IMG/VR virus record: IMGVR_UViG_2617270943_000005
Location: 1-18,763 of that record
DNA: 18,763 nucleotides
DNA from: a virus
Taxonomy: Duplodnaviria; Heunggongvirae; Uroviricota; Caudoviricetes
Direction: 5' to 3' (one strand)
Within the stretch, counting starts at the first letter, position 1; every line of letters begins with the position of its first letter. A program made the position numbers and the translations under genes. Below are positions 1 through 15,076 of this stretch, piece after piece. The notes beneath the pieces are model-generated. The model saw nothing but the letters and a program-made list of their open reading frames with translations, was not told the DNA's origin and did no database searches.

Positions 1-483
1 ATGACGAAGAAAAAAGCACATAAACCTGGTTCAGCGACCATCGCGCTTAACAAGCGCGCCCGTCACGAATACTTTATCGAAGAAGAGTTCGAGGCGGGAC
101 TTGCCCTGCAAGGCTGGGAGGTTAAATCCCTGCGCGCAGGAAAAGCCAATATCAGCGACAGCTACGTCCTTCTGCGTGACGGAGAGGCATTTCTGTTTGG
201 CGCTAACATCACGCCAATGGCTGTGGCATCCACGCATGTGGTGTGCGATCCTACCCGTACCCGCAAGTTACTTCTCAACCAGCGCGAACTGGACTCATTG
301 TACGGTCGCGTCAATCGAGAAGGCTATACCGTAGTGGCGCTCTCCCTGTACTGGAAAAATGCCTGGTGCAAAGTGAAAATCGGCGTCGCTAAAGGTAAGA
401 AACAGCACGATAAACGTTCAGACATTAAAGAACGCGAATGGCAGGTGGATAAAGCGCGTATCATGAAAAACGCCCACCGTTAA
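1..483 (+). CDS. smpB: SsrA-binding protein SmpB, full length (160 aa)
   Basis: ORF 1..483 translates to [30 protein letters not shown]..., which I recognise as enterobacterial SmpB; it lies immediately upstream of the tmRNA gene, the conserved smpB-ssrA synteny. Confidence 0.96.
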
Positions 484-697
484 ATCTGCACTCCAATTAT
501 TGACCAGTTCCTCACCGCGCCACCCTCTCCGGCGGCGCGAATGAACATCTTATTGGCTATCACATCCGCCCCAAATGTTGCCATCCCATTGCTTAATCGA
601 ATAAAAATCAGGCTACACGGGTGCTAAATCTTTAACGATAACGCCATTGAGGCTGGTCATGGCACTCATGAATCTGGTATACTTACCGTTACACATT

Positions 698-1060
698 GGG
701 GCTGATTCTGGATTCGACGGGATTTGCGAAACCCAAGGTGCATGCCGAGGGGCGGTTGGCCTCGTAAAAAGCCGCAAAAAATAGTCGCAAACGACGAAAA
801 CTACGCTTTAGCAGCTTAATAACCTGCTTAGAGCCCTCTCTCCCTAGCCTCCGCTCTTAGGACGGGGATCAAGAGAGGTCAAACCCAAAAGAGATCGCGT
901 GGAAGCCCTGCCTGGGGTTGAAGCGTTAAAACTTAATCAGGCTAGTTTGTTAGTGGCGTGTCCGTCCGCAGCTGGCAAGCGAATGTAAAGACTGACTAAG
1001 CATGTAGTACCGAGGATGTAGGAATTTCGGACGCGGGTTCAACTCCCGCCAGCTCCACCA
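698..1060 (+). ncRNA. ssrA: tmRNA (SsrA), 363 nt
   Basis: 5' end GGGGCTGATTCTGGATTCGACGGG; tag-peptide reading frame GCA AAC GAC GAA AAC TAC GCT TTA GCA GCT TAA (ANDENYALAA) at 787..819; tRNA-like 3' end GGTTCAACTCCCGCCAGCTCCACCA ending at 1060. Confidence 0.96.
1016..1053 (+). repeat. Left copy of 38-bp direct repeat (att core inside ssrA 3' end)
   Basis: ATGTAGGAATTTCGGACGCGGGTTCAACTCCCGCCAGC at 1016..1053 is identical to 14884..14921; the flanks diverge on both sides (CTCCACCA here versus GATTGGACG at the right copy). Confidence 0.85.
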
Positions 1061-1070
1061 AATAAAACAA

Positions 1071-1103
1071 GGGGTTACGTGAAAGCGTAGCCCCTTTTTC
1101 TTT
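1071..1103 (+). terminator. Intrinsic terminator downstream of ssrA
   Basis: GGGGTTACG (1071..1079) pairs with CGTAGCCCC (1086..1094) with one G-U wobble, loop TGAAAG, followed by TTTTTCTTT. Confidence 0.7.
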
Positions 1104-1183
1104 GGTAGTGGCGGCAAAATGGCGACAGACTTTTGCGTCTATCTTGCCTGTCGCCCTCTTGAAATCATGCAAAGAGGTTTCAC

Positions 1184-1828
1184 ATGGAAGAACTTCACTT
1201 TGTTTACATCAATGCAAATGGTCGTACCTACTGGTTTGTGCAATACGGCATGACCACGCAGCCGTATCAGTTCACGAAAGGCAGCATCTTTCATCTGATG
1301 GAACCGGATATTAATCAGGAGATCTACGGGCTGCCCGGCTATCTTTCTGCCATCCCATCCGCTTTGCTCAACGAGTCCGCCACGCTGTTCCGCCGGAAGT
1401 ATTACATTAACGGTAGTCATGCAGGCTTCATCATGTACATGACCGATGCCGCGCAGAACCAGGAGGATGTGAACAACCTCCGCAATGCCATGAAAAGCGC
1501 CAAAGGACCAGGTAACTTCCGCAACCTGTTTATGTACTCGCCTAACGGTAAAAAGGACGGGCTTCAGATTATCCCGTTGTCAGAGGTGGCGGCGAAGGAT
1601 GAGTTTTTGAACATCAAAAACGTGAGCCGGGACGACATGATGGCGGCGCACCGCGTACCGCCGCAAATGATGGGGATTATGCCTAGCAATGTCGGGGGGT
1701 TTGGGGATGTGGAGAAGGCTAGTAAGGTATTCGTAAGAAACGAATTGATGCCCCTGCAGAAACGATTGCAGGAACTAAATAACTGGTTGGACGAAGAAGT
1801 GCTCAATTTTTCAACCTATGAGCTTTAG
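1184..1828 (+). pseudogene. 3' fragment of a phage portal gene (P2 Q-like), N-terminal part missing
   Basis: 214-aa translation (MEELHFVYINANGRTYWFVQYG...GIMPSNVGGFGDVEKASKVF...) resembles the C-terminal portion of PBSX/P2-family portal proteins. The frame opens only 7 codons upstream (in-frame TGA at 1160..1162), about 100 bp from the ssrA junction. It converges on gene A across the cos-like motif, as Q does in P2. Confidence 0.55.
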
Positions 1829-1836
1829 TTTTAAAA

Positions 1837-1856
1837 CGAAGACCATTAGGTCTTCG
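1837..1856. terminator. Bidirectional hairpin terminator between the convergent portal fragment and RT
   Basis: CGAAGACC (1837..1844), loop ATTA, GGTCTTCG (1849..1856): perfect 8-bp stem flanked by AAAA upstream and CTTTATTT downstream, so there is a U-run after the stem on both strands. The RT stop codon (1846..1848) lies in the loop. Confidence 0.6.
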
Positions 1857-2808
1857 CTTTATTTAAAGGGTTCTTTCCATATTTTTTTTCTAATTTGCTA
1901 ATATAAGTTATTAATCTTCTATGGCTTTTTGAATCCACACTTAAAATAAATGACAACCATCCCCTAACGTGTTCTATCTCAGAAGACTTACCGCAAAATA
2001 TATGATGTATCTTTGCTCTAATTTCTTTATATTTTTCTCTACCTATCCCAACTTTCTCTTGTGAAATAACTAAACCTGTAACTTTCCTCTGACTACGAGG
2101 CCCACTAATACAAGTTTTTTTTGAGTTAATAACCAATCCTTCACTTGGGATTATAGAAAATAAAAAATCACGTGCTTTAACAACCTTTTTCATAGACTGT
2201 GCAGATAAGGTGAGATCATCGGCATATCTCGTATATATCAAGCCCCGACTACCTGCATAGCCCTGAATACGATAATCAAGTTTAGAACATATTAGATTAG
2301 CTAATTTAGGTGATGATGGAGCACCTTGTGGTAGCAGATTTTTATAACAACATATTTTTGTCAAAACTGAAGATATTAGTCGATTATAACCAAGAGAATG
2401 GAACACTCCAAAAACTTTGTTAGCAGTTAAACTTGGGAAAAAATCCTCCAAATCAATATTCAGTATAAAGTTTGCCCCAATATGCGGGGTAGCATTATTC
2501 AAAATAGATTGGTGCTTTTCAAATCCAATAGAAAAAGGAGATGACGACAGTTTATCTAAAATGTTACGTAGAACCCATCCTTGTAAGGCTTTAAGTTCTC
2601 GAGAAGGTTGGTAAATGGTTCTCATTCTCTTCTCTGGGCCTTTCTTTTCTACAGTGTAGATCCTATAGCGAAAATCAGCTGTATAGATTAACAACCGAAG
2701 TGTTTCAACAGATATGCGAGTCGCCTTAGACATGTCATGCAAATTGTTCATGACAGGTAGGCCGAGATTTCTCAATCTAAAAGTGTTCAAATATTCAGCG
2801 GATTTCAT
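1846..2808 (-). CDS. ret: Retron reverse transcriptase (320 aa); recognised from memory as the retron Ec86 / Retron-Eco1 RT
   Basis: RT motifs in the translation: LPQGAPSSP, YADD (RYADDLTLS) and the retron-typical VTG (QRKVTGLVIS). ATG at 2808..2806 lies 7 nt downstream of the msr-msd 3' inverted repeat. Length and N-terminus MKSAEYLNTFRLRNLGLPVM match my recollection of the Ec86 RT. Confidence 0.93.
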   Translation of the reverse strand: MKSAEYLNTFRLRNLGLPVMNNLHDMSKATRISVETLRLLIYTADFRYRIYTVEKKGPEKRMRTIYQPSRELKALQGWVLRNILDKLSSSPFSIGFEKHQSILNNATPHIGANFILNIDLEDFFPSLTANKVFGVFHSLGYNRLISSVLTKICCYKNLLPQGAPSSPKLANLICSKLDYRIQGYAGSRGLIYTRYADDLTLSAQSMKKVVKARDFLFSIIPSEGLVINSKKTCISGPRSQRKVTGLVISQEKVGIGREKYKEIRAKIHHIFCGKSSEIEHVRGWLSFILSVDSKSHRRLITYISKLEKKYGKNPLNKAKT

Positions 2809-2814
2809 GAAAGT

Positions 2815-2984
2815 TGCGCACCCTTACGTCAGAAAAAACGGGTTTCCTGGTTGGCTCGGAGAGCATCAGGCGATGCTCTCCGTTCCAACAAGGAAAACAG
2901 ACAGTAACTCAGATTCAATGCAGGATGCCGAAACAACATCCAGAGGTTGACCTTAATGATAAACCTCTCGCTAAGGGTGCGCAT
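2815..2984 (-). ncRNA. msr-msd: Retron msr-msd non-coding RNA (template/primer for msDNA), Ec86-type
   Basis: Minus strand reads ATGCGCACCCTTAGCGAGAGGTTTATCATTAAGGTCAACCTCTGGATGTTGTTTCGGCATCCTGCATTGAATCTGAGTTACTGTCTGTTTTCCTTGTTGGAACGGAGAGCATCGCCTGATGCTCTCCGAGCCAACCAGGAAACCCGTTTTTTCTGACGTAAGGGTGCGCA. Perfect 12-bp a1/a2 inverted repeats at 2972..2983 and 2815..2826; long msd hairpin with an 11-bp tip stem at 2857..2882. Matches the Ec86 ncRNA as I recall it from retron-editing constructs. Confidence 0.9.
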
Positions 2985-3894
2985 ACGGAATCTTATCATA
3001 GTTAAATGTTGATTTTCTACGGTTTTCAAAATTCATAATCTCAAGCCGCAATCGGTCAAGTGTCTTTCTATCAAAGACGCTCCTAACATAGCTAGCCCCC
3101 AAAGCAGTGACCTGATAACCATCAGTCATTTGAAGTATTTTTCGTTCATTTATTAGACGAGAAACAACGGATCTAACAATAATTTTAGATAAAACATCAT
3201 CTTGCTTTATCGCTTTAAAAGCTAGTTCACACAGTGTGCGGTAGTTGACACTATCCAGTAAATAGATACAAGGCAATAGAAACCGCTCTGCGTATAATAT
3301 ATTTCCAATATCTTTTGATACTTTATTTTCTTTCCTAACCTGCTTAATAGATGCCATTAATTTTTTATATAATCGTAATTTTCTGGCAACATCAATAGAT
3401 GAATCACACATTTCTTTTAGTTCATTTGAACTACAACGCAAAACAGATTTTGAATTAAACTTACGCAACAAGCGAACAGGACCATAGTTAATAAAGCTAC
3501 GTTTTGATTTAAATTTTGCATCTTGAATGCAAATCAACTTTCTCCTTAAGTTTTCATTATTAGAGAACGCACCAAGCTCTGTGAAAGACCCCGGACTTTC
3601 AGGAAATAAAATTATTACATCGACAGCTTCAGCCAGAATATTTTCTAAACTTAAAAGGCTATGCTGCCCTTGACCAGCCAAAAGATCATCAAATAGATCT
3701 TCTGGATAAAATATATCAACATCACTGAACTTTGCTAAAAATTGTGATAATTGATGACGCCAAGATTGATGATTAGCAACGTCACCACCACATAGAAAAA
3801 TGGTTATTTTAATATTAGCTCCTCGATAGAAGCCTTTCTTTGTGAGATGTCCTATAAGCTGTTGTTGCTGCTCATCGGTAAATTTTTTATTCAT
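2971..3894 (-). CDS. Retron effector, nucleoside 2-deoxyribosyltransferase (NDT)-like protein with C-terminal extension (about 307 aa)
   Basis: Same strand as, and immediately upstream of, msr-msd and ret. NDT-like features: ANIKITIFLCGGD and VDVIILFPESPGSFTELGAF (candidate catalytic Glu in a DxGxxFExG-like context). Start chosen at ATG 3894..3892 because of the SD GGGGAGA 5 nt upstream; the six-frame ORF extends to 4026 but that N-terminal extension crosses a GC-rich non-coding-looking patch. Stop TAG at 2973..2971 lies inside the msr a1 repeat. Confidence 0.82.
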   Translation of the reverse strand: MNKKFTDEQQQQLIGHLTKKGFYRGANIKITIFLCGGDVANHQSWRHQLSQFLAKFSDVDIFYPEDLFDDLLAGQGQHSLLSLENILAEAVDVIILFPESPGSFTELGAFSNNENLRRKLICIQDAKFKSKRSFINYGPVRLLRKFNSKSVLRCSSNELKEMCDSSIDVARKLRLYKKLMASIKQVRKENKVSKDIGNILYAERFLLPCIYLLDSVNYRTLCELAFKAIKQDDVLSKIIVRSVVSRLINERKILQMTDGYQVTALGASYVRSVFDRKTLDRLRLEIMNFENRRKSTFNYDKIPYAHP

Positions 3895-3966
3895 AATCTC
3901 CCCGCTTTTTTCTACTTTATACATCAAGTTATGAATAGATCCAATCTCCATACCCCATGGCGCGCG

Positions 3967-3985
3967 CTCGTATCCCCGCCACGCC
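3967..3985 (-). other. cos-like motif (possible remnant of P2/186 cohesive-end site)
   Basis: Minus strand 3985..3973 reads GGCGTGGCGGGGA, matching the first 13 nt of the 19-nt P2/186 cohesive end as I recall it (P2 GGCGAGGCGGGGAAAGCAC); it then diverges. It sits in a short GC-rich patch between gene A and the portal fragment, where cos lies in P2. Confidence 0.35.
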
Positions 3986-4237
3986 TGCCCGCTTTGTATA
4001 GCGGTTTTCATGCACTCGCATGGCATAAGGGAAACCTTGCCAGAACTGGCGACCCTCAGCGAAAACGATCTTCAAACGATCATGCGGATTCATGCAGCAT
4101 AGACAGGCACTACTGAGCAATAGCGCTTGAGTTCAGTCAGATATGAGTCCTCAATGTAATACTAATACATCTTAACCGTTCATCATTATTCACATCGGGC
4201 TATGTAATTACAGAAAAACTTTTCACAATCAATTTTA

Positions 4238-4266
4238 TACTGGATTATTTCAGTTTATTGTATAAT
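4238..4266 (+). promoter_or_regulatory. Candidate sigma70 promoter for the 303-aa hotspot gene
   Basis: TATAAT at 4261..4266 immediately preceded by TG (4259..4260), in an AT-rich leader about 40 nt upstream of the start codon at 4306; the -35 region is weak. Confidence 0.4.
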
Positions 4267-4305
4267 TCATGACGCATGCAAATTGACATTAATTCAGGAG
4301 ACAAA

Positions 4306-5217
4306 ATGACATTAATTGTAGCTGGTTTCGAAAAAGATGGAACAATTGTTTTTTGCGGGGACTCACTAATAACAACAAAAGCAAATGGAAGCACTGTAAA
4401 ATTGACATCGTCCTTCAGAAAAATAATACCACTAGAAATTATTGTGCGAGTACCGGAAATCGATCCAAGTGGAAAAATCATAAATTACATTGAAAGCCTT
4501 TGCCAACATCGCTGCATGATTGCATTTGCAGGAAGCACGCTAGTTTCTCAACATATTATAAATTCTATACAAGGTCATCTGAAACAAATAAAATACACAT
4601 ATGATTCTGGCACATATGACTATTCAGAAGGATGCATAAAGGGTGCTGGCTATAAGTTAATAATGGGTTGTGAAGATAACAAAAGCGTTGAGGAAACCTA
4701 TTGGAACGAAGATATGTTTGTTGAGCCAGTAAAGAATGCGAACGAACTTATTAATAAAAATTTTCTACGCAACGTCTTTAGCCACTGCATACAGAAAACC
4801 ATGAATGAATTTTACATTAATATTAATGAGGAATTTAATCCAGAGTGGTTTGCAAGCGATTTCATTGTAGCTCTGTCTTGCTATGAGACTAAAAAAAACC
4901 ATCTTTTTACCTTTAAAATGGAATTTAATGAGTCAGGGGTCAATCTTATAGAAAAAGAAATTAATATCAATGAACTGGCAATAATTGGCATTTCAAGATA
5001 TAGCGAAGAAATAATTCAAGCATATCAAACTCAAAAAGCGACCCTCAGTACATCTGAAATTCTCAGCCAAGAGATTACTAAAGCAATCATAGACAATGAA
5101 AGCATTGATCTTAGAGAAATAGGAGATCCTGTCGTATTAAAAAAATTCAATCAACATCGTGAATTACGTGATGAGCAAAAACACTGGAGGTGCAATACTC
5201 CTCGAGAAAACCAATAA
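4306..5217 (+). CDS. Hypothetical protein (303 aa), AT-rich cargo gene in the old/tin-equivalent hotspot; possible Ntn-hydrolase (HslV/proteasome-like) N-terminal domain
   Basis: Long ORF with SD AGGAG (4296..4300) 5 nt before ATG 4306. N-terminus MTLIVAGFEKDGTIVFCGDSLITTKANGSTVKL... has Thr at position 2 and a pattern reminiscent of HslV ([23 protein letters not shown]...K). Codon usage is distinct from the neighbouring phage genes. Family assignment is tentative. Confidence 0.75.
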   Translation: MTLIVAGFEKDGTIVFCGDSLITTKANGSTVKLTSSFRKIIPLEIIVRVPEIDPSGKIINYIESLCQHRCMIAFAGSTLVSQHIINSIQGHLKQIKYTYDSGTYDYSEGCIKGAGYKLIMGCEDNKSVEETYWNEDMFVEPVKNANELINKNFLRNVFSHCIQKTMNEFYININEEFNPEWFASDFIVALSCYETKKNHLFTFKMEFNESGVNLIEKEININELAIIGISRYSEEIIQAYQTQKATLSTSEILSQEITKAIIDNESIDLREIGDPVVLKKFNQHRELRDEQKHWRCNTPRENQ

Positions 5218-5244
5218 ACGCCTCGCTATACTCGTTGTTCAACC

Positions 5245-5279
5245 TTGCTGACGCGAGAATAAAATTCTCACGTCAGCAA
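5245..5279. repeat. 35-bp inverted repeat (16-bp arms, 1 mismatch, 3-nt spacer) between convergent genes
   Basis: TTGCTGACGCGAGAAT aaa ATTCTCACGTCAGCAA at 5245..5279, between the stop of the 303-aa gene (5217) and the stop of the 62-aa ORF (5291). No clear U-tract follows on either strand. Confidence 0.5.
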
Positions 5280-5290
5280 CGTTCCTGCTG

Positions 5291-5479
5291 CTAACCGAGA
5301 AGATCCATTGAGCGGTTGTATTCGTGGCTTCTGATTTTTGCCATGAGTTCATCAGTCAATTCAGAAACCCACTGCAGAGCCAGCCCCTTCTCTTCATCAC
5401 TACACTCACTAGCCGCTACAAGCTTAAGAAAAAAATCAATGCGCTGGAGCTTCAAAGACTCCAAAAAATAGTCCTGCAT
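5291..5479 (-). CDS. Small protein (62 aa), putative SOS-inducible Tum-like antirepressor
   Basis: ATG 5479..5477 preceded by a strong SD AGGAGG; a LexA box lies 41 bp upstream; it sits downstream of gene A, as tum does in coliphage 186. The function is inferred from context; I do not recognise the protein sequence itself. Confidence 0.5.
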   Translation of the reverse strand: MQDYFLESLKLQRIDFFLKLVAASECSDEEKGLALQWVSELTDELMAKIRSHEYNRSMDLLG

Positions 5480-5519
5480 CTTTCCTCCTATGACACCAAA
5501 GCAATACTGTATATATAAC

Positions 5520-5539
5520 TACTGTTTATATTTACAGTA
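5520..5539. promoter_or_regulatory. LexA box (SOS operator)
   Basis: TACTGTTTATATTTACAGTA matches the consensus TACTGT(AT)4ACAGTA with perfect CTGT-N8-ACAG; an additional CTGT half-site lies at 5507..5510. Confidence 0.6.
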
Positions 5540-5631
5540 TATAATAATCTTACTGATGTAAAACGTTTTTTTACGTTCATCAGCCTGATATGCCTGGTAT
5601 TATTAAGAGCACGAATTGTTAACCCGCGTAA

Positions 5632-8073
5632 TTAATACAGGTTCCGCCACTTATCATCTTCCTGCAAACGCTGGTTCCGATAGAAGATTCGCAGGCCTGC
5701 TCCTGACGGAATGCTGCCGCCGCGAAGGAGTAAATCGACCTCTTTCTCGCTGCCATCAAATCCTCTGGACTTCAGTTCATACACGAGCTGCAGTCGCTGA
5801 TGGTCTGTAATTCGCTGTTTGTAGTCTTTACGACGTTTCGGTTTAACCAGGCGTAACCTTGCTACCAGTTCCCGGCGCTCTTTTTTGCTCAGACTGTGCA
5901 GGTATTCGTGCAACTCTTTGTCATCCATGCGGGTGATATCCGTTCTGGTATCCCCATCAGCTGATTTGTTTTTCTCCTGTTGGTTCAAATTTTCAGCAAG
6001 GGGACAGTTATTGCCACGAGTCCAAGGGGCGCAAGCGCCCTGGTCGGCTGCCGCCTCCTGAACGTCAACGGCCTTACGAACCATTTTCCACTTCACTGCA
6101 TGAGTGCAGATCTTGCCCTCTGCAATGGGTGACCAGATGCCATAAATACGAATACCGTGATCGCCATAGGCGGTTGGCTCTTCGTTGATTTCATAAGCGG
6201 TTCTGATGAGGTGATATTTGCGGGGAACCAGTACGCCGCCCTGCTTCATGATGTAGGTGGCAAAACAACCAGCATCAGCAGCAGCCAGGATGGCATCAAG
6301 GCGCGGGTTATCCAGTACCGGCGCACCTGCTTTTTTGTCACCCTGTTGCCTTGCCGCCTGACCAGCCAGCAATCGCAGTTCACGGTAAGCCTGACGCCCC
6401 GGAATGCCAAAGAAGCGGAATTGCTGAACACGATGCAGAGACGCCCAGGCATTAACGTATTCAGCGTTATCACACAGGGATTTCCCCGTTTCCTTACTGA
6501 TCTCGCCAGCCAGACCACGTCCGTCAATATTCTTACTGATATATTTCGCAATGTAGCTTGTCGGCGTTCCTTTGCGCGGGTTTATCAGCTCAGACTTAAA
6601 GCGTGGCCCCGTGTTATTGCCCAGCTCCTCGCGGTCTTCACGGATGGCAAACTTACGCAACAATGCAGTAATGGCGCGGCGGTCTTTTTTGCGCATGAAA
6701 CACAACAGGTGCCAGTGAACTGTGCCGTCATGATGCGGCTCAGCCACCCGCACGCCATACCAGCGCAACCCGGCTTTGTGCATAGCCTTACGAAATGCAG
6801 CAAACATGCCGACCAGATAATCACTGCTTTGTCTTACTGTCGCGTTGGTCCAGGTCGGGTTTGGCCTGCCGTTATTTAGCGTGGAATGGAAACGTGACGG
6901 ACAGGTGATGGTGTAGAAAACGGCGCAGTCACCGCGCATTTCCGCGATAAGCTCCAGACCTTTAACACAGGCCATCATCTCATTGCGGCGATGCGCAGGG
7001 TTGCTGCTGCTGGCGTTTACCACATCCTCCATGTCCAGCGTGTCGCCGTCTTCGTTCACCAGTTCATGAGAACGAAAAAACTCCAGCGACTTACGGCGCT
7101 GCTCACGTTTATGCATCACGGCTTCATAGCTGACATAGGGAGATGCTTTTTTGCTGACCAGGCAAACAGCACGCAACTGCTCTTCCCGCCATTCGCAACG
7201 CATCTTCCATAATTTCCGGTACCACCAGTCGGCGCACAACATACGCGCCAGCGAACCCGGAATGAGTTCATAGGGCACGGGTTTACGGCGGTTTCTTTTC
7301 CGGCGGAGTTGCTCAAACGCAGGCGGGATGACATCCAGACGCAGGGTTTCCGCTGCCATCTTTTCCCATGTCTTGCGGATTTCTTCTGGCTTAACGTCAT
7401 CGGTGACATACAAATCGCCACAAGCTGCATCAAGGCACATGCTCATATGCGCAGCGACAAGGGTAGACAAACGTTTCACCTGATCCTGACTCATTTCAGG
7501 CAGGATCAGCAGGCCGTCCAGCCCTTCATGGCTTGCCATAAAGCGAAAAGAAGTGGATAGCTGACTGTCGCGTACATGCTCCAGTCGTTCCAGACATGGC
7601 TTAATCGTCTCACGCAAATAGCGGGAATAAGCCTTTGGCCTGCCCAGGCTGCTGAAGTATTCAATACGTTGCATCAGCGGCTTGCTGATATGGGAAGGCT
7701 GGGCATTGACGTCCGCCAGAATGACCATATCTGGATTAAAACGCTGCTGCTCATGCGCCAGCTTTGCCCGGCTAATGAGCTTATCCTGCTCCATTTCGCG
7801 TTGGACAGGATCACGGGATTCATTAAAGAAATAACGCTCCCAGACCTGATCACTCAGTGCCTCGCGGCGCAGTTGTTCCTGCTCGTTATCGGCAGCGTAC
7901 AGAGTGATCAGGTTTGAAAGCGCAGAAATCGGCGCAACTTCCGCCGGGTCCAGATAAGGGTTAATGGCTTTCTTAGGTAAATTCCACGAATAACCCCCGG
8001 CAGAATTCTCAATGCTACCGGAAGTTACACTGACAAATGGATCGGCAAGACGGCCTGTGCTGATCTCTGTCAC
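5632..8073 (-). CDS. A: Phage replication initiation endonuclease (P2 gpA family), 813 aa
   Basis: Large ORF whose translation I recognise as the P2/186 replication protein A family. GTG start at 8073..8071 overlaps the TGA stop of the upstream gene (GTGA); SD AGGAG 7 nt upstream. Confidence 0.88.
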
Positions 8074-9080
8074 TCACAGACTCCTGCATATACACTGCTG
8101 CACACCGCTTTATCATTCATGCCTGCCAGCAGGTCAAACTGCATACCGCCCCGAGTCGTTAAGGCCCAGTCCCGATAAGTTTCAATGCCATAAGCATCAA
8201 CAGTTATGACTTCGATCCGTTTTTCAGCACGGCGCGGATCATGCGTGGATGGAAAGAACGTTGAATTGCCATGTCTTGAACATTCCGCAACCAGTCTTTC
8301 CCACTCAGCCACTCGGCGGATTTCTTCTGGCCAGCGTTGGAAAATCTCAGCAAGTTCTGACTTGCGAGCATGAATACATGGCATACAACCGACACGACTG
8401 CATCCCTGCATATAAAGGGGGTTAGGCTTAATGCCATGACGTTTGGCAATAGCAAACACATCCTCATGCAGCCAATTAAGGATCGGACGATAAACATGCA
8501 GGCCCAGAGTATTGTCTGCATCGTCCTCCCACTCAGGCAACAATGCACGTTCCGGTGATTCCTGCCCCCGGACTCCTTGCCAGCTGATTACCTCATCGTA
8601 TTTATCCAGAGCCGGATCGATTACCTGTGTACGTATTGGTTCATGTTTCAGTTCAAAAGTGCAGAAACGAGCTTTTGTTGAAGGGAAGCGACCTTTCCAC
8701 ATGCACAAATCAAGAAACGGAACGCCGGTTGGTTTAAGGATTTCCAGTGCCCGGTAAATACGTTCCTCAGCCTCATCTGTCGACATACCACATTCCTCAA
8801 CGAGAGAAATGGGCCACTTTTCCGCAATGAATTTACGTTTCCCTTCTATCTGGCGTGTGAAATCCGCTTTGACGCGAATAATCTTGCCCAGCTTTGATTC
8901 CAGATAATCCAGATATTCTATTGTCTGTGGATGTTCATGACCCGTATCGGCAAATACAGAAATATGCGGAACATCGTTTTCAATGGCTCTTAGCCATTGA
9001 GCGAGACTATCTTTGCCACCAGAAGTAGTGATGATGTTAATGGTGCTTGAGGCAAAGCAACGCGGATCGATAGCATTCAT
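8070..9080 (-). CDS. Phosphoadenosine-phosphosulfate (PAPS) reductase-like family protein, 336 aa
   Basis: N-terminal ITTSGGKDS is the PP-loop (SGGxDS) typical of PAPS reductase / ATP-pyrophosphatase-fold proteins; ATG 9080 overlaps the dam stop (ATGA); SD GAGG present. Confidence 0.8.
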
Positions 9081-9925
9081 GAGCGTACCTCAACGGTACG
9101 GTCAGAGCCGCTGGCAAAATCGACACCAAACCACCCAGCTGATTTGGTGGCAATGATTTCTGCTGCAGATTTACTCTCGCCAGCTGACACGCCGATGCTG
9201 CGTTTTGCCTTGATGTAGTAGTGAGTGAAATTGCGATACAGCGAACGAATCAGGGATGTGTCACTGTTAGAAACAATGACCGGATGACCTTCAGATGATC
9301 GATGTTCAAGAACGGATGCCAGGTGATACTGGTCATCTTCAGTGAAGCCATCAGTGTGATAGCCGGAAAACGTACCGTCATAAGGCGGATCGCAATACAC
9401 CACATCCCCCGCCTTCAACATCGCCAGCGTTTCATCAAAGCTGGCGCAGATAAACGTTGCCCGCTGGGCTTTCTCTGCAAATGCGCGAATTTCTTTTTCA
9501 GGGAAATACGGATTTTTATAATTACCGTAGGGAATGTTGAAATACCCGCTCTTGTTATAGCGACATAACCCACGATAACCATGACGATTGAGATACAGAA
9601 AATATACCGCTTTCATGAAATCAGTAATTTCAGTGGAGTAATTAAACTCCTGCCTTATGTTGTAATAAGCCACCTCCCTGTTTGCTTCCTCAAATAAAGC
9701 TCTGGCACGAGATATAAACGCCTCACAATCAGCAGCAACCTTTTTATAGAGGTTGATTAAATCAGGATTAATATCCGCAACAAGATAGCTGGGGTAATCC
9801 GTCTCCATCATCACTGCACAGGAACCCGCGAAAGGTTCAACCAGTCGCGGGCCAGCAGGAAGATGCTTTTTCAGTTCGGACATTATGGCGGTTTTATTTC
9901 CCGCCCATTTCAGGATGGTGCTCAT
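9077..9925 (-). CDS. dam: DNA N6-adenine methyltransferase (Dam family), 282 aa
   Basis: Motifs [16 protein letters not shown] and DPPY (VYCDPPYDG). Start chosen at ATG 9925 (SD GGAGG; overlaps the stop of the upstream gene, ATGA) rather than the longer six-frame ORF starting at 9985. Confidence 0.88.
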
Positions 9926-10149
9926 ACAGCACCTCCGTTGTAATGTTTGCCTTTCAGCTCTGCGATTTCCTGACAGGTAATGCAAAGCTGCACACCCGGA
10001 ATGGCACGACGGCGTGCTGGCGGAATTGGCGCTTCACACTCAACGCAAAGCACGCGGGACACGCCCGGCGTTTTGGCACGGGCAGCACGGATATGACGTT
10101 GGCGTTCTTCTTCAACTCGCTGCTGTACGAGATCCATTGCATCAGCCAT
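9922..10149 (-). CDS. TraR/DksA-family C4 zinc-finger protein, 75 aa
   Basis: CVEC-x17-CITC four-cysteine finger in a 75-aa protein, typical of small phage TraR/DksA-like proteins; start overlaps the upstream stop (TGATG). Confidence 0.82.
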   Translation of the reverse strand: MADAMDLVQQRVEEERQRHIRAARAKTPGVSRVLCVECEAPIPPARRRAIPGVQLCITCQEIAELKGKHYNGGAV

Positions 10150-10382
10150 CAGTGGATCTCCTGCGCTTCGTTCTGGATTGCTTCAGCAGTCACACGCAGC
10201 AGTTCTGCCGCTTCGACGTGGTTTAACTGGCGGGATGTGATATGACACGCCAGGCGATCAAGGCGAGCTGCCATTGCTTCAGCCCTTGCCCGGCGTTCTT
10301 CCAGACGAGCCTCTGTCAGTAAAATATTAAGCCCTGCGTCATCCGGTCCGGTTTTAGTCGTGAAGGTTTCAATATTACGCAT
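10149..10382 (-). CDS. Hypothetical phage early protein, 77 aa
   Basis: ORF in the translationally coupled early operon; start at ATG 10382 with SD AGGAG 8 nt upstream (the six-frame call begins at an upstream TTG). Confidence 0.55.
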   Translation of the reverse strand: MRNIETFTTKTGPDDAGLNILLTEARLEERRARAEAMAARLDRLACHITSRQLNHVEAAELLRVTAEAIQNEAQEIH

Positions 10383-10449
10383 AATCAATTCTCCTGTATT
10401 TAGATAAAGGGATGCCCGGCGGGTTTACGCCATTAATTTCATTAGTTGG

Positions 10450-10791
10450 TTAATTCGGCATGGTTAGCCGTCTGGGAAATAAGCTCACCACTGCACGAAA
10501 ATGATTCATTGCTTTAATCAGCTCCCGCTTTTCGTCAGTGGTCAGCTCATTAATGCTGATGCTATGACGTTCAGCTGGAATTTTTGCCATAAAGAATATG
10601 GCAGCCAGTGCTCGTTTATTTTGTTCGTTATTGATATCCCGTGGATCACGCATATCTTTAATAAACCGCTCAAGCTCTGACTCAATATTCAGGCCAAATA
10701 CTTTCGCCCTTAACTCCGCAATGTGATTAAGTCCATTCAGGCGTTCACCGGGGCTTAATGGAACAGTCGCCGCAGCGCCTTCAATAGCCAT
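10450..10791 (-). CDS. Hypothetical phage early protein, 113 aa
   Basis: ORF with ATG 10791 and upstream GGGGGAA; same orientation as the early operon; no family recognised. Confidence 0.5.
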   Translation of the reverse strand: MAIEGAAATVPLSPGERLNGLNHIAELRAKVFGLNIESELERFIKDMRDPRDINNEQNKRALAAIFFMAKIPAERHSISINELTTDEKRELIKAMNHFRAVVSLFPRRLTMPN

Positions 10792-10955
10792 TTGTTCCCC
10801 CGTTTTTTCGTAGATAGTTCTGCCAGCAATTCATCTTGTGAACGGCACGGATGCCAGCGTTTACCATCCTCACCCATGATCCAGCCGTGACCGTAGTGCA
10901 TTGCCGGACTTTGTTTTACCAGGAGCGATGCAAATGATGGTTCTTTCATCAGCAT
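10755..10955 (-). CDS. Hypothetical small protein, 66 aa, immediately after cII (position of 186 fil)
   Basis: ATG 10955 with SD GAGGTG 5 nt upstream; overlaps the next ORF by 37 nt; the assignment rests on position only. Confidence 0.4.
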   Translation of the reverse strand: MLMKEPSFASLLVKQSPAMHYGHGWIMGEDGKRWHPCRSQDELLAELSTKKRGNKWLLKALRRLFH

Positions 10956-10962
10956 AAGCACC

Positions 10963-11472
10963 TCACAGCAAACCGAATGAAGCACCGAGGCCAGTCACGG
11001 TATCAACCGCACTCGCCATCGCAGGATTAGCCTGTAAACGGGCCTGCAATGAAACAGCAGCCAGCGCCATCAGTCGTGTAACAGAGTTAATGCTGCTGAT
11101 AGCATCACGACGACCGGCACAGGTTTTTACCTCGCCAGATACCGCACCTGCAGCAACACGCCCGATCTCTGCGGTTGCACTCATGACGTAATGTGGCAGT
11201 TTCTCTTTTGCCACCTCATTAATCGGTACACATGGTAGGCAGTGAATCTGTGCCAGAAAACCATCTATCAGCGTTGAATCTTCAGTCAGATCGGTAAGCA
11301 GCCAGATTTCTGGCGCATTGAGCTGATGCGGTTGATCTGGGTTGAGTTTGTTTCGCAGTGTCTGGACATTCATTCCTGCACGTTCTGCCAGCTTCGCCAT
11401 ATTGTGACGAAGTGCAAAAGCTCTACAGGCTTCATCAAAATGCGGGTGTTTGGAAATCTTATAATCAAACAT
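10963..11472 (-). CDS. cII: Phage CII-like transcriptional activator (186 CII family), 169 aa
   Basis: 169-aa protein MFDYKISKHPHFDEACRAFALRHNMAKLAERAGMNVQTLRNKLNP... matches the length and N-terminal HTH region of coliphage 186 CII as I recall it; second gene of the rightward-type operon after the apl/cox-like gene. Confidence 0.8.
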   Translation of the reverse strand: MFDYKISKHPHFDEACRAFALRHNMAKLAERAGMNVQTLRNKLNPDQPHQLNAPEIWLLTDLTEDSTLIDGFLAQIHCLPCVPINEVAKEKLPHYVMSATAEIGRVAAGAVSGEVKTCAGRRDAISSINSVTRLMALAAVSLQARLQANPAMASAVDTVTGLGASFGLL

Positions 11473-11504
11473 GCTACCCCCTTAGAAAGTTCTCATAATT
11501 GAAC

Positions 11505-11747
11505 TTACTTACCAACAATGACGCGGAAGTTGGAATGACCGAGGGATTCACGGACCTGATCGGTTTTGTACATTAAATAACGCAGGCTTACGCGGCCTTT
11601 GTTTTTTTCCTTCTTGACCATGTATTTAGCAAGCTGACCATGGTGAATTTTTTGATACACAGAGCCGCGGGAGATACCTTCCCATTCAGCGAACTCAGCA
11701 GGCGTTGCCATCTCTTTTGGTACACGAATTGAAATATCAGTACTCAT
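11505..11747 (-). CDS. Cox/Apl-like small DNA-binding protein (excisionase/repressor), 80 aa
   Basis: First gene of the operon divergent from cI-int; small basic protein; position identical to apl in 186 and cox in P2. Confidence 0.6.
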   Translation of the reverse strand: MSTDISIRVPKEMATPAEFAEWEGISRGSVYQKIHHGQLAKYMVKKEKNKGRVSLRYLMYKTDQVRESLGHSNFRVIVGK

Positions 11748-11834
11748 AGTGCAGTATCTCTTACTTTGTGTGCGTGTTAGTTCGTTTTAGCCCGTCTCTT
11801 AAACTCTCACATCAAGAGACACGAAGACATTACG

Positions 11835-11849
11835 ATCTTGATTCAAGAT
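11835..11849. promoter_or_regulatory. Perfect 15-bp palindrome in the lysis-lysogeny switch region (candidate operator)
   Basis: ATCTTGATTCAAGAT at 11835..11849, 20 bp upstream of the cI start; a second inverted repeat GTCTCTT-N13-AAGAGAC lies at about 11794..11820. Confidence 0.4.
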
Positions 11850-11868
11850 TGTCAAATGGAGATTACCA

Positions 11869-12501
11869 ATGTTAAACATCAGAATGGGTTCCGATACGGG
11901 AGGTAAAGCAGCTATTGAGAGGCTGCTTGCGGCTTATGGATTTACAACTAAGCAGGCATTAAGCGAGCACCTGAATGTCTCAAAAAGCACTATGGCGAAC
12001 AGAGTGTTACGTGACAGTTTTCCTGCTGACTGGATAATTCAGTGCGCACTAGAAACCGGTGTTTCGTTGCTTTGGTTAGCTACAGGACAGGGAAGCATGA
12101 AAGGAGGAAGTGAGCCTGAAAAAAGATCTCACAATGAGAACAAACAAGCAATTAAACCGTTATCCAAACTCATAACTCCATCTATTCCTAAAGGAACCTT
12201 GGAGAATGGACAACTCAGTATTGATGAAGAGATTTTCTTAGACCACAGCATATTACCTGCAGATTATGAAGAATCGATGTTCTTAGAAACCCCTACTGAT
12301 TGTTATCTCATCGATAAATCAGTTAAACAAGTCAGCAATGGATTCTGGCTTATCAATATTGATGGAATGATTATTATTGCAAAAATCATGCGGATTCCCG
12401 GCAATAAGATTGTAGTAAATCAAGATGAAGCGTCTTTCGAGTGCTCTGCTGATGATGTGGAAGTTATTGGGCGTGCAGTCAAAGTAATAAAGAGTATCTA
12501 A
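11869..12501 (+). CDS. cI: Phage CI-like repressor (186 CI family), 210 aa
   Basis: N-terminal HTH region (TTKQALSEHLNVSKSTMANRVLRD) and two-domain architecture like 186 CI; directly upstream of, and coupled to, int; divergent from the apl/cII operon. Confidence 0.8.
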   Translation: MLNIRMGSDTGGKAAIERLLAAYGFTTKQALSEHLNVSKSTMANRVLRDSFPADWIIQCALETGVSLLWLATGQGSMKGGSEPEKRSHNENKQAIKPLSKLITPSIPKGTLENGQLSIDEEIFLDHSILPADYEESMFLETPTDCYLIDKSVKQVSNGFWLINIDGMIIIAKIMRIPGNKIVVNQDEASFECSADDVEVIGRAVKVIKSI

Positions 12502-12503
12502 AC

Positions 12504-13520
12504 ATGACTGTCAGAAAACAGCCAAACGGTAAATGGTTGTGCGAGTGCTATCCCAATGGACGCAATGGCAAGCGCGTGCGTAAGCAATTTGCTACGAAAG
12601 GCGAAGCCATTGCTTTTGAAAGCTTCACAATGGCAGAAGTGAACAAAAAACCATGGCTGGGGGAAAAGGAAGATCGGCGACACCTATCAGAATTAATTGA
12701 GCAGTGGTATTCCCTATATGGTCAAACACTCGCAGACCCCAAGCGCCTCATGGCGAAACTTAGAATTATCTGTAATGGTCTGGGCGATCCCATCGCCTCA
12801 GAACTGACAGCCGGTGACTTTACGAAATACCGCGAAGCACGGTTAAAAGGCGAAGTGCGAAATGAAGATGGCACGCTTATGTCGCCCGTTAAGCCCCGCA
12901 CGGTAAACCTTGAACAGCGCAATCTATCATCGGTGTTCGGTACATTAAAAAAACTAGGACACTGGTCAGCACCAAACCCGCTGGCAGGACTTCCAACCTT
13001 CAAAATTGCTGAAGGTGAGCTGGCTTTTCTTTCCGCGGACGAAATCAAACGCCTATTGGTTGCCTGCGCAGATTCCCAGAGCCCCAGCCTTCTTATGATT
13101 GCAAAAATATGCCTGGCCACCGGCGCACGCTGGAGTGAAGCCGAAAACCTGCAGGGCCATCAGTTATCCAAATACCGCATCACTTATACCAAGACGAAGG
13201 GCAAGAAAAACCGTACCGTGCCGATATCTCAGGATCTGTACAACGAACTTCCCAAAAACAGAGGGAAGTTATTCACGCCATGCAGAAAAGCCTTTGAGCG
13301 AGCAGTAAAGCGGGCCGGTATCGTTCTACCTGAGGGACAATGTACTCATGTGTTACGCCATACATTCGCCAGCCACTTCATGATGAATGGAGGAAATATA
13401 CTGGTTCTCAAAGAAATTCTGGGGCATGCCGATATAAAGATGACAATGGCTTACGCTCATTTTTCTCCTGACCATTTGGAAGATGCCGTCCTGAAAAATC
13501 CTTTAACTAATTTAAGGTAA
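12504..13520 (+). CDS. int: Tyrosine integrase (P2/186 Int family), 338 aa
   Basis: Catalytic signature ATGARWSE ... HVLRHTFAS ... LGHADIKMTMAYAH (R, H-x-x-R, Y); size typical of P2 Int. Confidence 0.92.
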   Translation: MTVRKQPNGKWLCECYPNGRNGKRVRKQFATKGEAIAFESFTMAEVNKKPWLGEKEDRRHLSELIEQWYSLYGQTLADPKRLMAKLRIICNGLGDPIASELTAGDFTKYREARLKGEVRNEDGTLMSPVKPRTVNLEQRNLSSVFGTLKKLGHWSAPNPLAGLPTFKIAEGELAFLSADEIKRLLVACADSQSPSLLMIAKICLATGARWSEAENLQGHQLSKYRITYTKTKGKKNRTVPISQDLYNELPKNRGKLFTPCRKAFERAVKRAGIVLPEGQCTHVLRHTFASHFMMNGGNILVLKEILGHADIKMTMAYAHFSPDHLEDAVLKNPLTNLR

Positions 13521-13527
13521 TAGTTCA

Positions 13528-14766
13528 ATGGTTATTGAAACTAAAAGCAAAAAAATATCAAAAGTTGCGTTAAAAAGGCTTTTTAACACTATTTTAAAAA
13601 AATCCTCAATTCGTCCTCCTATAGAAGTTGGCAAAAATAATGACCTAATTACTGATTTCTCTGCAAAATGTGAAAAATTTAAAGATTGCCTGAAAGAATA
13701 CATAGAAAACAATAATGATGATATCTTAGCAAGAAGAGTTAAGAGCAGATTAAAAGTTATTGAGTCCGTGCAAGAAGGCATAATAAATTGTTTGGAATGC
13801 TTTCTTTCCGGAGATATCAAGTCAGCGTATGATTCTTTTGAGGAAATGCTTGAGCCAGATTTTGTATCAAGGCATATTAAAAATATTTGCATACCTTTAT
13901 CTGAAAAGTGTGGTAATAACAAGCGTCTATTTAGAGTCAGGAAATCCGAACGCCCTTTATCAACAAGAAAAGATATCTTTCATATTCCTTTCAATCAGCG
14001 CCATCTGGTTAGTGCACAACGCTACTCAGTTGCAGGTCTTCCGTGCCTTTATTTAGGAACTTCATTGTATATCTGCTGGCGAGAAATGGACAAACCCGAT
14101 TTTGATAAGTTATATATATCATCATTTACCACTAGCTCAGAGAATAATGAATCGCTACTATTAGATTTTAGTGCTGATTTCCTTTATAAAACGAAGCTAT
14201 TCTTTACATCTAAAAAAGAACATTCTTCAGCAAAAGAGCTTTCTTCGGTCACAATGTTATCATACCTCGCATTATGGCCTTTAATAATCGCATGCAATTA
14301 TTTAAAAAAACATAGCAATGCATCTTTCATTCAGGAATATATAATACCAAACTTACTTATGCAGTGGATAAGCAGGGATATTAACGATTACAACATTGTT
14401 GGAATTGCTTATCGTTCAACAAAACTACCTGCAAATGCTGATAGTGAGAGAGGGGTCAATGTCGTTCTTCCTCCAAAAATTCGTTACGAAGACATGAAGG
14501 TTAACGAATTCTGCCCAGAACTCTCCGGCTTATTTCACTGTACCCCACCAGTATCATGGCAGGTTCTAAAAACTCTTGAATATGTACCATTGCGTCAATC
14601 CTTCTCAGATAGAGAGATATTGAGTGACGAGCTCAGGAACAAAAAGCTCTGGGATATAATGGGCAATCTTGATGATGAAATTTTGAGCATTTATAAATTA
14701 TCTGACTTTTACAAGCTTGAAGTTTGTATGGATGAAATCCAAGTCCATAACGACATAAACACATAA
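13528..14766 (+). CDS. RES-domain-like protein (412 aa), AT-rich cargo between int and the right att repeat
   Basis: Segment RLFRVRKSERP...QRYSVAGLPCLYLGTSLYICWRE fits the RES-domain pattern (Arg ... G-x-P-x-LY-x-x-S ... E). Strong compositional shift to AT-rich immediately after the int stop. Confidence 0.65.
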   Translation: MVIETKSKKISKVALKRLFNTILKKSSIRPPIEVGKNNDLITDFSAKCEKFKDCLKEYIENNNDDILARRVKSRLKVIESVQEGIINCLECFLSGDIKSAYDSFEEMLEPDFVSRHIKNICIPLSEKCGNNKRLFRVRKSERPLSTRKDIFHIPFNQRHLVSAQRYSVAGLPCLYLGTSLYICWREMDKPDFDKLYISSFTTSSENNESLLLDFSADFLYKTKLFFTSKKEHSSAKELSSVTMLSYLALWPLIIACNYLKKHSNASFIQEYIIPNLLMQWISRDINDYNIVGIAYRSTKLPANADSERGVNVVLPPKIRYEDMKVNEFCPELSGLFHCTPPVSWQVLKTLEYVPLRQSFSDREILSDELRNKKLWDIMGNLDDEILSIYKLSDFYKLEVCMDEIQVHNDINT

Positions 14767-14883
14767 AAATTGGCGACAATTTGGCGGCAAATCATTAAAA
14801 ATACTTAAAACAACTAAACACAGCAAAACACTAACATACTGTTTTTAATGATAAATGCATGATTTCATTATAATTAAAATGGT

Positions 14884-14921
14884 ATGTAGGAATTTCGGAC
14901 GCGGGTTCAACTCCCGCCAGC
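14884..14921 (+). repeat. Right copy of 38-bp direct repeat (att site; duplicated ssrA 3' segment without the CCA end)
   Basis: Identical to 1016..1053; followed by CGATTGGACG instead of the tmRNA 3' end. Confidence 0.85.
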
Positions 14922-15043
14922 GATTGGACGGTGTAAGGACAACACTAACAAAAACAGGAAGTTAGAAGTCTCAGCAAGACACCGACCAGACGGTGAGGAG
15001 ATATAAAAGGATACGCAAAGGAGCCGCGGCTCCTGGTGATATG

Positions 15044-15067
15044 AAAGCCCACAGATGTGGGCTTTTT
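15044..15067. terminator. Hairpin terminator between the island and the autotransporter gene
   Basis: AAAGCCCACA / TGTGGGCTTT inverted repeat followed by a T-run on the plus strand; 10 nt from the autotransporter stop codon (15077..15079). Confidence 0.5.
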
Positions 15068-15076
15068 CGTTGATGG

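Follow-up and report, generated by a model that had tools for sequence, protein, structure and literature searches.

A stand-alone protein of the proteasome/HslV branch carried as mobile cargo in a P2-like prophage remnant, with a possible role in phage exclusion

The DNA analysed here is IMG/VR virus record IMGVR_UViG_2617270943_000005, positions 1 to 18,763 (the window, 18,763 nucleotides in all), and it holds a 13.9-kb P2/186-like prophage remnant lying 3′ of a host smpB/ssrA flank. The subject of this work is a gene in the AT-rich cargo of that remnant, coding for a protein of 303 amino acids (aa). We found that this protein stands alone, has no propeptide, and belongs to the proteasome-beta/HslV branch of the N-terminal nucleophile (Ntn) hydrolase superfamily, and that its gene is a horizontally moving single-gene cassette occupying variable slots of P2-like phages, integrative and conjugative elements (ICEs), and plasmids. 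A first-pass annotation, made from the sequence alone, had proposed an uncharacterised HslV-like cargo gene in an anti-phage hotspot; this central interpretation is supported, and the observation as a whole was confirmed in part. The features of the gene are listed below, with conservation taken from an alignment of 87 family sequences (A2) in which identity falls to 17%.

4259 to 4266, + strand: TGTATAAT, a −10-like element (TG at 4259–4260, TATAAT at 4261–4266) without a convincing −35
4296 to 4300, + strand: Shine-Dalgarno sequence AGGAG, 5 nt before the ATG at 4306
4306 to 5217 (stop included), + strand: coding sequence of the predicted 303-aa proteasome/HslV-like N-terminal-threonine hydrolase
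4309 to 4311, + strand: Thr2 codon, expected to supply the N-terminal nucleophile (Thr1 once Met is removed), at least 90% conserved
4360 to 4362, + strand: Asp19 codon, equivalent of proteasome/HslV Asp17, at least 90% conserved
4420 to 4422, + strand: Lys39 codon, equivalent of Lys33, invariant
4522 to 4539, + strand: AFAGST motif, residues 73–78, with Gly76 (at least 90% conserved) as equivalent of the oxyanion-hole Gly47
4987 to 4989, + strand: Gly228 codon, in AIIGIS, invariant
5241 to 5283: stem-loop with 20-nt arms (90% complementary) and a 3-nt loop, between the convergent 303-aa gene and a 62-aa open reading frame (ORF)

The mechanical ORF begins at the first ATG after a stop, at 4276, and ends at 5217. 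We place the start at 4306 instead because the AGGAG, noted earlier as a strong ribosome-binding signal and borne out here, lies at 4296–4300 with nothing similar ahead of 4276, and because homologues in other genera begin exactly at Met-Thr; the product then opens MTLIVAGFEKDG. The claim that the gene has its own promoter fared less evenly. The TG and TATAAT are present, but statistical support is not: a two-hexamer sigma-70 scan gave zero sites upstream of the gene, and the four promoter-like matches there compare with 6.5 ± 2.7 in shuffled sequences, showing no enrichment. A promoter at this position is plausible and carries no statistical weight. Upstream of the orthologue on L033, a P2-like contig from IMG/VR, the TATAAT is retained and the TG has become TA, and the two upstream regions are 98% identical over 221 aligned bases (4100–4320), too alike to reveal selective conservation. 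The stem-loop past the gene has no T-run and was not called an intrinsic terminator. One E. coli genome has, beneath a gene annotated as DinI-like, sequence that is 86% identical to 5217–5286. The GC content of the gene is ~0.32–0.36, compared to ~0.50–0.56 in the phage core genes.

The N-terminus had been likened to the Thr1/Asp17/Lys33 arrangement of HslV, and most of this likeness holds. A Thr follows the initiator Met in 97 of 102 full-length family members, with Met-Ser in another three. The Asp expected about 17 residues later is Asp19, which hhalign places on HslV D17 (GDS on GDG). The Lys had been put about 30 residues on, which implies K32; the conserved residue is K39, which falls on HslV Lys33 (FRKI against VKKV). 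Likewise, the AFAGST segment that was said to recall GFAGG of HslV does align by hhalign with GFAGGT in the Gly45 region. The HslV sequence used for these alignments matches the PDB save for one conservative difference. M1, K39, and G228 are the invariant columns among the 87 sequences, and T2, G7, D19, S20, I22, P50, G76, and P275 are at least 90% conserved. Methionine aminopeptidase takes off Met when Thr comes next, and E. coli HslV, which has the same Met-Thr start, appears in PDB entries as the mature chain TTIVSV with Met gone.

Read from these alignments, the Thr1/Asp17/Lys33/Gly47 set is retained as the predicted Thr2/Asp19/Lys39/Gly76 across the family of ~117 clusters, and the 303-aa protein is very probably a catalytically competent proteasome-like Ntn hydrolase. 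By eye, the AIIGIS around Gly228 appears to resemble the AIGSGG of HslV and the G128-S129 turn of the proteasome. A further alignment (A3) shows residues Q82, H83, N86, H91, C122, H160, and C192 to be conserved in the family and absent from HslV. It is possible that H83, N86, H91, C122, H160, and C192, which are conserved at 90% or more, could serve as a metal site, a redox site, or a specificity pocket.

The predicted structure agrees with this assignment. The AlphaFold2 model of the protein has a predicted local distance difference test score (pLDDT) of 85.4 and a predicted template modelling score (pTM) of 0.85, and when it was searched against the PDB with Foldseek, the check that had been suggested for the gene, all of the top 50 matches were proteasome or HslV chains with the proteasome-type Ntn fold. 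In the comparison table, where the figures carry no label, proteasome beta subunits stand at 17.0, designed Anbu at 16.0, T. maritima HslV at 15.3 (21% identity over 162 residues), and BPH at 13.8, followed by NAAA and acid ceramidase at 11.8 or less, connectase at 10.2, and penicillin acylases below 10. In the model, all 303 residues form one four-layer proteasome-type alpha-beta-beta-alpha Ntn domain. Since the fold alignments cover the entire chain, the Glu/Ile/Asn-rich C-terminal half, whose 150 residues had been set apart as a region of no recognised family, belongs to this same domain and is not a second module; it is modelled as helix H2, strands S6–S10, and helices H3 and H4. The extra length over HslV is due, in the model, to two insertions: a hairpin at approximately residues 46–66, located between the Lys and Gly strands, and a stretch of ~55 residues between H1 and H2 (94–150). 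Many distant relatives have a variable insertion in the first hairpin. An N-terminal extension in these relatives was considered and ruled out, as it appears only in the coordinates of the hidden Markov model (HMM) and the proteins nevertheless start with MTL.

No model in Pfam, NCBIfam, or PADLOC matches the 303-aa protein (PADLOC-DB v2.0.0, 0 families at E ≤ 0.1), and the family has no conserved neighbour gene, which agrees with the earlier failure to match it to a named defence system. PHROGs assigns the protein to the unnamed family phrog_25719, and searches of the PDB with sequence profiles built from 20- and 87-sequence alignments came back empty. A word-indexed search gave 19 clusters, every one from Enterobacterales and annotated as hypothetical, and a profile search of 1.84 billion representatives extended the family to 117 clusters (98 of them below 1e-10) from alpha-, beta-, and gammaproteobacteria, mostly Gammaproteobacteria. 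The gene itself is rare. It is absent from 5,426 complete E. coli genomes searched by megablast and blastn, even though the host flank in the window is 99.3% identical to E. coli, and tblastn with the window protein or a central family member gave no match in the 50,697 phage records of INPHARED. Its closest copies are on one IMG/VR contig and on short metagenome contigs.

To describe where the family occurs we compared the surroundings of its members. Distant loci were retrieved from 100,044 genomes with a 32-sequence subset, and variants of [AS]FAGSTL[VTS][AS]Q proved specific enough to pull out 15 loci, from Pseudomonas, Aeromonas, Rheinheimera, Cognaticolwellia, Thalassospira, Janthinobacterium, Paracoccus, and others. 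When 258 flanking ORFs from 19 loci were compared all against all, only the family gene itself recurred across diverse loci. The gene immediately upstream varies by lineage, and includes Mrr_cat, J-domain, and DUF2513 genes, a 154-aa ORF, and a 260-aa paralogue in Pantoea. On phage-like contigs, homologues sit in the gpA/rep-to-portal hotspot of L033, L035, and L038, being the sole cargo there in L035 and L038, and a Serratia P2-like prophage (L027) has one at the gpS–gpV variable site. Relatives were also found in 18 plasmid records, of which 14 are conjugative.

Several of these copies lie close to defence genes. One Yersinia ICE has the homologue adjoining Hachiman (HamA and helicase) and HigBA-like genes, and in another it immediately follows the gene of a PDC-S02-like Mrr_cat protein, with AbiEii in the vicinity. 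In Enterobacter integrative elements it adjoins a PDC-S45-like protein and CTD10/MC6/DUF2326 genes, and in Enterobacter locus L010 it is within 3 kb of a NACHT protein. A Pantoea copy is near a Schlafen/AlbA_2 protein resembling PDC-S50, and the copy on an Acinetobacter plasmid has in its vicinity a Phd/RelE pair as well as a helicase-DUF4391-methyltransferase set. Among 127 neighbours at 12 of the 15 distant loci, PADLOC identified QatB/C/D, DarT, DarG, type I restriction–modification subunits, a methyl-directed restriction endonuclease, PD-T4-6, and mad6, and Pfam identified four integrases, transposases, and phage portals. Two other settings are given below.

Citrobacter freundii plasmid p1_140542 (L040), 6003 to 7981: 326-aa family member 84 bp after a J-domain (DnaJ-like) gene, with 15 similar plasmids
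Pantoea agglomerans contig L034, 6095 to 6877: 260-aa proteasome-like paralogue directly upstream of a family member

The adjacency to a J-domain gene in the Citrobacter plasmid lineage hints at DnaK-mediated delivery of substrate. The Pantoea paralogue reads MTLCIAW...ASDS...K...AFAGS and aligns with the family profile by hhalign at 83.5% probability (E 8e-6); such a tandem pair of divergent proteasome homologues was seen in the Pantoea lineage only.

In the window, the gene lies within the remains of a decayed prophage. The remaining features are as follows.

1 to 483: smpB, host flank
698 to 1060: ssrA, host flank
1016 to 1053 (3′ end of ssrA) and 14884 to 14921 (beyond the integrase): exact 38-bp direct repeat bounding the remnant
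1184 to 1828, + strand: C-terminal fragment of gpQ, the portal gene, matching Pfam Phage_portal (3e-12) over positions 99–276 of the 321-position profile
~1800 to 5300: AT-rich cargo block, GC 0.31–0.41
1846 to 4026, − strand: Ec86-type type II-A retron, with reverse transcriptase (RT) at 1846–2808, a gap at 2809–2970, and NDT effector at 2971–4026
4112 to 5302: cassette whose place in E. coli BL21(DE3) is taken by a DinI-like gene together with a 111-aa hypothetical gene
5291 to 5479, strand opposite to the 303-aa gene: 62-aa ORF, phrog_698
5632 to 8073, − strand: gpA replication endonuclease, Pfam Phage_GPA 2.4e-127, which with the portal gene bounds the hotspot
8070 to 9985, − strand: downstream of gpA in the early operon, PAPS-reductase-like gene that overlaps a gene for a Dam-type D12 methyltransferase
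Between the Dam methylase and the integrase: CII and CI genes
12504 to 13520: integrase
13528 to 14766, + strand: 412-aa AT-rich orphan (GC ~0.33) occupying a second cargo slot, flanked by the integrase and the right-hand att repeat
3′ of the remnant, outside the repeat: AIDA-type autotransporter gene

The two copies of the 38-bp repeat are the att sites of the remnant, and the only match in an Rfam scan of the window is the transfer-messenger RNA. The portal fragment begins 124 bp past ssrA, whereas BL21 holds a complete portal gene, and it is all that is left of the structural genes, so the remnant is unable to form particles. The 303-aa gene nevertheless remains intact. Between the window and its 96%-identical L033 orthologue there are 19 synonymous and 13 non-synonymous differences, giving a ratio of non-synonymous to synonymous rates (dN/dS) of 0.16, and purifying selection thus maintains the gene although the remnant makes no particles.

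Its position between gpA and the portal fragment is the old/tin-equivalent slot named in the first-pass annotation, and its strand is, as described there, opposite to that of the retron genes, the 62-aa ORF, and gpA. Two details of that description did not stand: the gene is not the only one in the AT-rich block, which also carries the type II-A retron, and the 62-aa ORF taken to be tum-like belongs to phrog_698 and has no DinI or Tum match. A separate DinI-like gene is found in part of this slot in BL21. The retron was recognised by PADLOC (RT_II-A 7e-128, NDT_II-A 5e-94) and by NCBIfam (St85 family); its RT is 320 aa long, and at the DNA level it matches retron Ec86 of BL21(DE3) with 97.7% identity. 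The 162-bp gap presumably holds msr/msd, for which Rfam has no matching family at 2809–2970, and the effector probably starts at Met45 (3894) rather than 4026, as the annotated BL21 effector is 307 aa. Elsewhere in the remnant, the PAPS-reductase-like gene matches PADLOC SspD (1.5e-23) and is also BrxP-like and DndC-like. The 412-aa orphan (13528–14766) is without a Pfam or PADLOC match, and L033 has a 396-aa ORF at the equivalent position.

The location of the gene suggests what it may do. Rousset et al. 2022 described an anti-phage hotspot in the gpA–gpQ interval, where P2 has old and tin, and counted 1,650 arrangements of it (PMC9122126). Residence in this hotspot raises the prior for a defence function and does not establish it. 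Taking the locus, family, and fold together, the best explanation as a whole is a stand-alone proteasome-like hydrolase acting in superinfection exclusion or abortive infection, and we regard this account as evenly balanced between right and wrong. In this scheme, methionine aminopeptidase would strip Met1 as it does in HslV and expose Thr as the nucleophile, and the free amine and hydroxyl of Thr1, together with Lys39 and Asp19, would hydrolyse peptide bonds with no ATP or dedicated unfoldase. A lysogen or prophage expressing the enzyme would then restrict other phages, its target being either a protein of the incoming phage or a host protein attacked once infection is sensed (abortive infection). 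Such a role would equal that of old and tin at the same P2 locus.

A number of observations weigh against this account. The anti-phage role is drawn entirely from genomic context, and we consider it plausible, at best on a par with its absence. Only three of the eight newly cloned hotspot systems of Rousset et al. were active (PMC9122126), making hotspot residence alone weak evidence. PADLOC-DB v2 has no model for the family, and in the literature searched no proteasome homologue was connected with phage defence. The enrichment of defence genes among neighbours is a matter of descriptive counts without a genome-wide background, and some copies have ordinary surroundings: a Dickeya copy lies amid chromosomal genes of no special kind, and those on plasmids of IncHI2 size are beside a J-domain gene and insertion sequence elements, which are not defence genes. 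The assignment to the proteasome branch has weak points of its own. The threshold of Pfam PF00227 (Proteasome) is not reached, with no match for the window protein and E ~0.08 for two of the 87 members, and hhalign against E. coli HslV gives E 1.4e-3 at a probability of 17%, a value that is low because the template is a single HslV sequence.

Of the other explanations, the strongest is that the protease serves the mobile element itself, through anti-defence or takeover. Upon entry or induction of the phage or plasmid, it would break down defence proteins or regulators of the host, or the repressors of competitors. The family is found on phages, ICEs, and large conjugative plasmids alike, the Yersinia copy is amid small unknown genes typical of plasmid and ICE accessory regions, and orientation to the early operon is not conserved, being opposite here and co-directional in L035 and L038, all of which would suit such a role. 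However, an intact gene under purifying selection in a remnant that makes no particles favours a benefit to the host cell, and the gpA–gpQ slot is known for exclusion genes expressed by the prophage (PMC9122126). We consider this explanation unlikely.

It is also possible that the protein is an Ntn enzyme and no protease, either a connectase-like peptide ligase or transpeptidase, or an amidohydrolase whose substrate would be a small molecule or a modified macromolecule, with a role that may be unrelated to phages. This we think rather improbable. That the ORF is in decay or without function, in a prophage that is itself dead, might be expected from a 13.9-kb remnant with so rare a gene (in 0 of 5,426 complete E. 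coli genomes), but the frame is full-length, dN/dS is low at 0.16, and the catalytic residues are conserved from alpha- to gammaproteobacteria; these conservation data effectively exclude it and make it very improbable indeed. The least probable alternative, rejected here, is that the gene supplies the adjacent Ec86-type retron, from which it is divergently transcribed across a common 279-bp intergenic region, with an accessory subunit. In BL21(DE3) and in other E. coli this retron (97–98% identical) is found with a different cassette in this place (blastn of the window against the BL21 locus L001 gives 1225–4111 and 5303–6753 as the only common segments), L033, L035, and L038 have the homologue with no RT nearby (in L033 beside an unrelated 345-aa gene), and neither RT nor NDT recurs among the neighbours of the 19 loci, so that the two cassettes are separable.

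With these alternatives weighed, the exclusion account can be stated in its strongest form, in which the family constitutes a new class of anti-phage immunity that needs a single gene and has as its effector a stand-alone, ATPase-independent, proteasome-like threonine protease. This stronger claim is tentative, and we would sooner expect it to fail than to hold. If true, it would be the first immune role for a protein of the proteasome family in bacteria, and P2-like phages, ICEs, and plasmids would be its means of spread. The locus ties one orphan family of proteasome homologues to cargo slots that hold exclusion genes of phages and ICEs; if that link is real, it would provide the first function for an orphan branch of the proteasome family, and a protease with a Thr nucleophile would be a mechanistically new anti-phage effector. 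With a single gene of 303 aa and obvious catalytic-dead controls, the idea is directly testable, and should no phage phenotype be seen, there would still be a well-defined new proteasome-like family with a mobility to explain.

Among characterized proteins, a close parallel is HslV (ClpQ, MEROPS T1B), the bacterial homologue of the proteasome, with which the 303-aa protein shares its fold and catalytic residues. It differs in being ~125 residues longer, owing to insertions, and in the family-specific motif AQHxxNxIxxHL and conserved Cys and His residues. HslV is a core gene, whereas this family is mobile and patchy, and unlike in HslVU there is no hslU-like AAA+ gene beside the family gene at the 19 loci, nor one flanking it in the window. 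Compared to 20S proteasome beta subunits, Anbu, and BPH, the family is without a propeptide and without an alpha-type partner, and its sequence similarity to them is under the level detected by profile HMMs.

Within P2-like prophages, old and tin of P2 and retron Ec86 occupy the same slot and are, like the 303-aa gene, AT-rich self-contained cassettes. The Old protein is a nuclease of the ATPase-TOPRIM type, and Tin acts on the ssDNA-binding protein of T-even phages. Both are unrelated to this family, and for both a defence phenotype has been demonstrated. Lit of prophage e14 is a zinc metalloprotease that causes abortive infection through cleavage of EF-Tu. It offers a functional analogy, as a single prophage-encoded protease acting on infection, which we put forward as a hypothesis only and with no relationship in fold.

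Proteins of a like kind were catalogued by Fuchs, Alva and Lupas in 2021 as 22 uncharacterised homologues of the proteasome, such as GPH, DPH, and RPC, with PPH and AAH borne by phages (PMC8665760). Like the present family, these are divergent, prokaryotic or phage-borne, retain the catalytic residues, and have no AAA+ partner. GPH, the gammaproteobacterial proteasome homolog, with 159 nr90 sequences (PMC8665760), resembles our family in size (~117 clusters) and taxonomy and is likened to it on those two alone; none of the published representative accessions (WP_152342571.1 for GPH, for example) is among ten central family members (0 of 10). The ~55-residue insertion between H1 and H2 falls where, according to Fuchs et al., insertions that block rings are to be expected (PMC8665760). 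The 22 homologues were catalogued without AAA+ partner, function, or informative genomic context (PMC8665760), whereas members of the present family are linked to cargo hotspots of phages and ICEs. The class of protein was therefore already known, and what appears to be new is its association with hotspots and defence islands, along with the immune role that this would imply.

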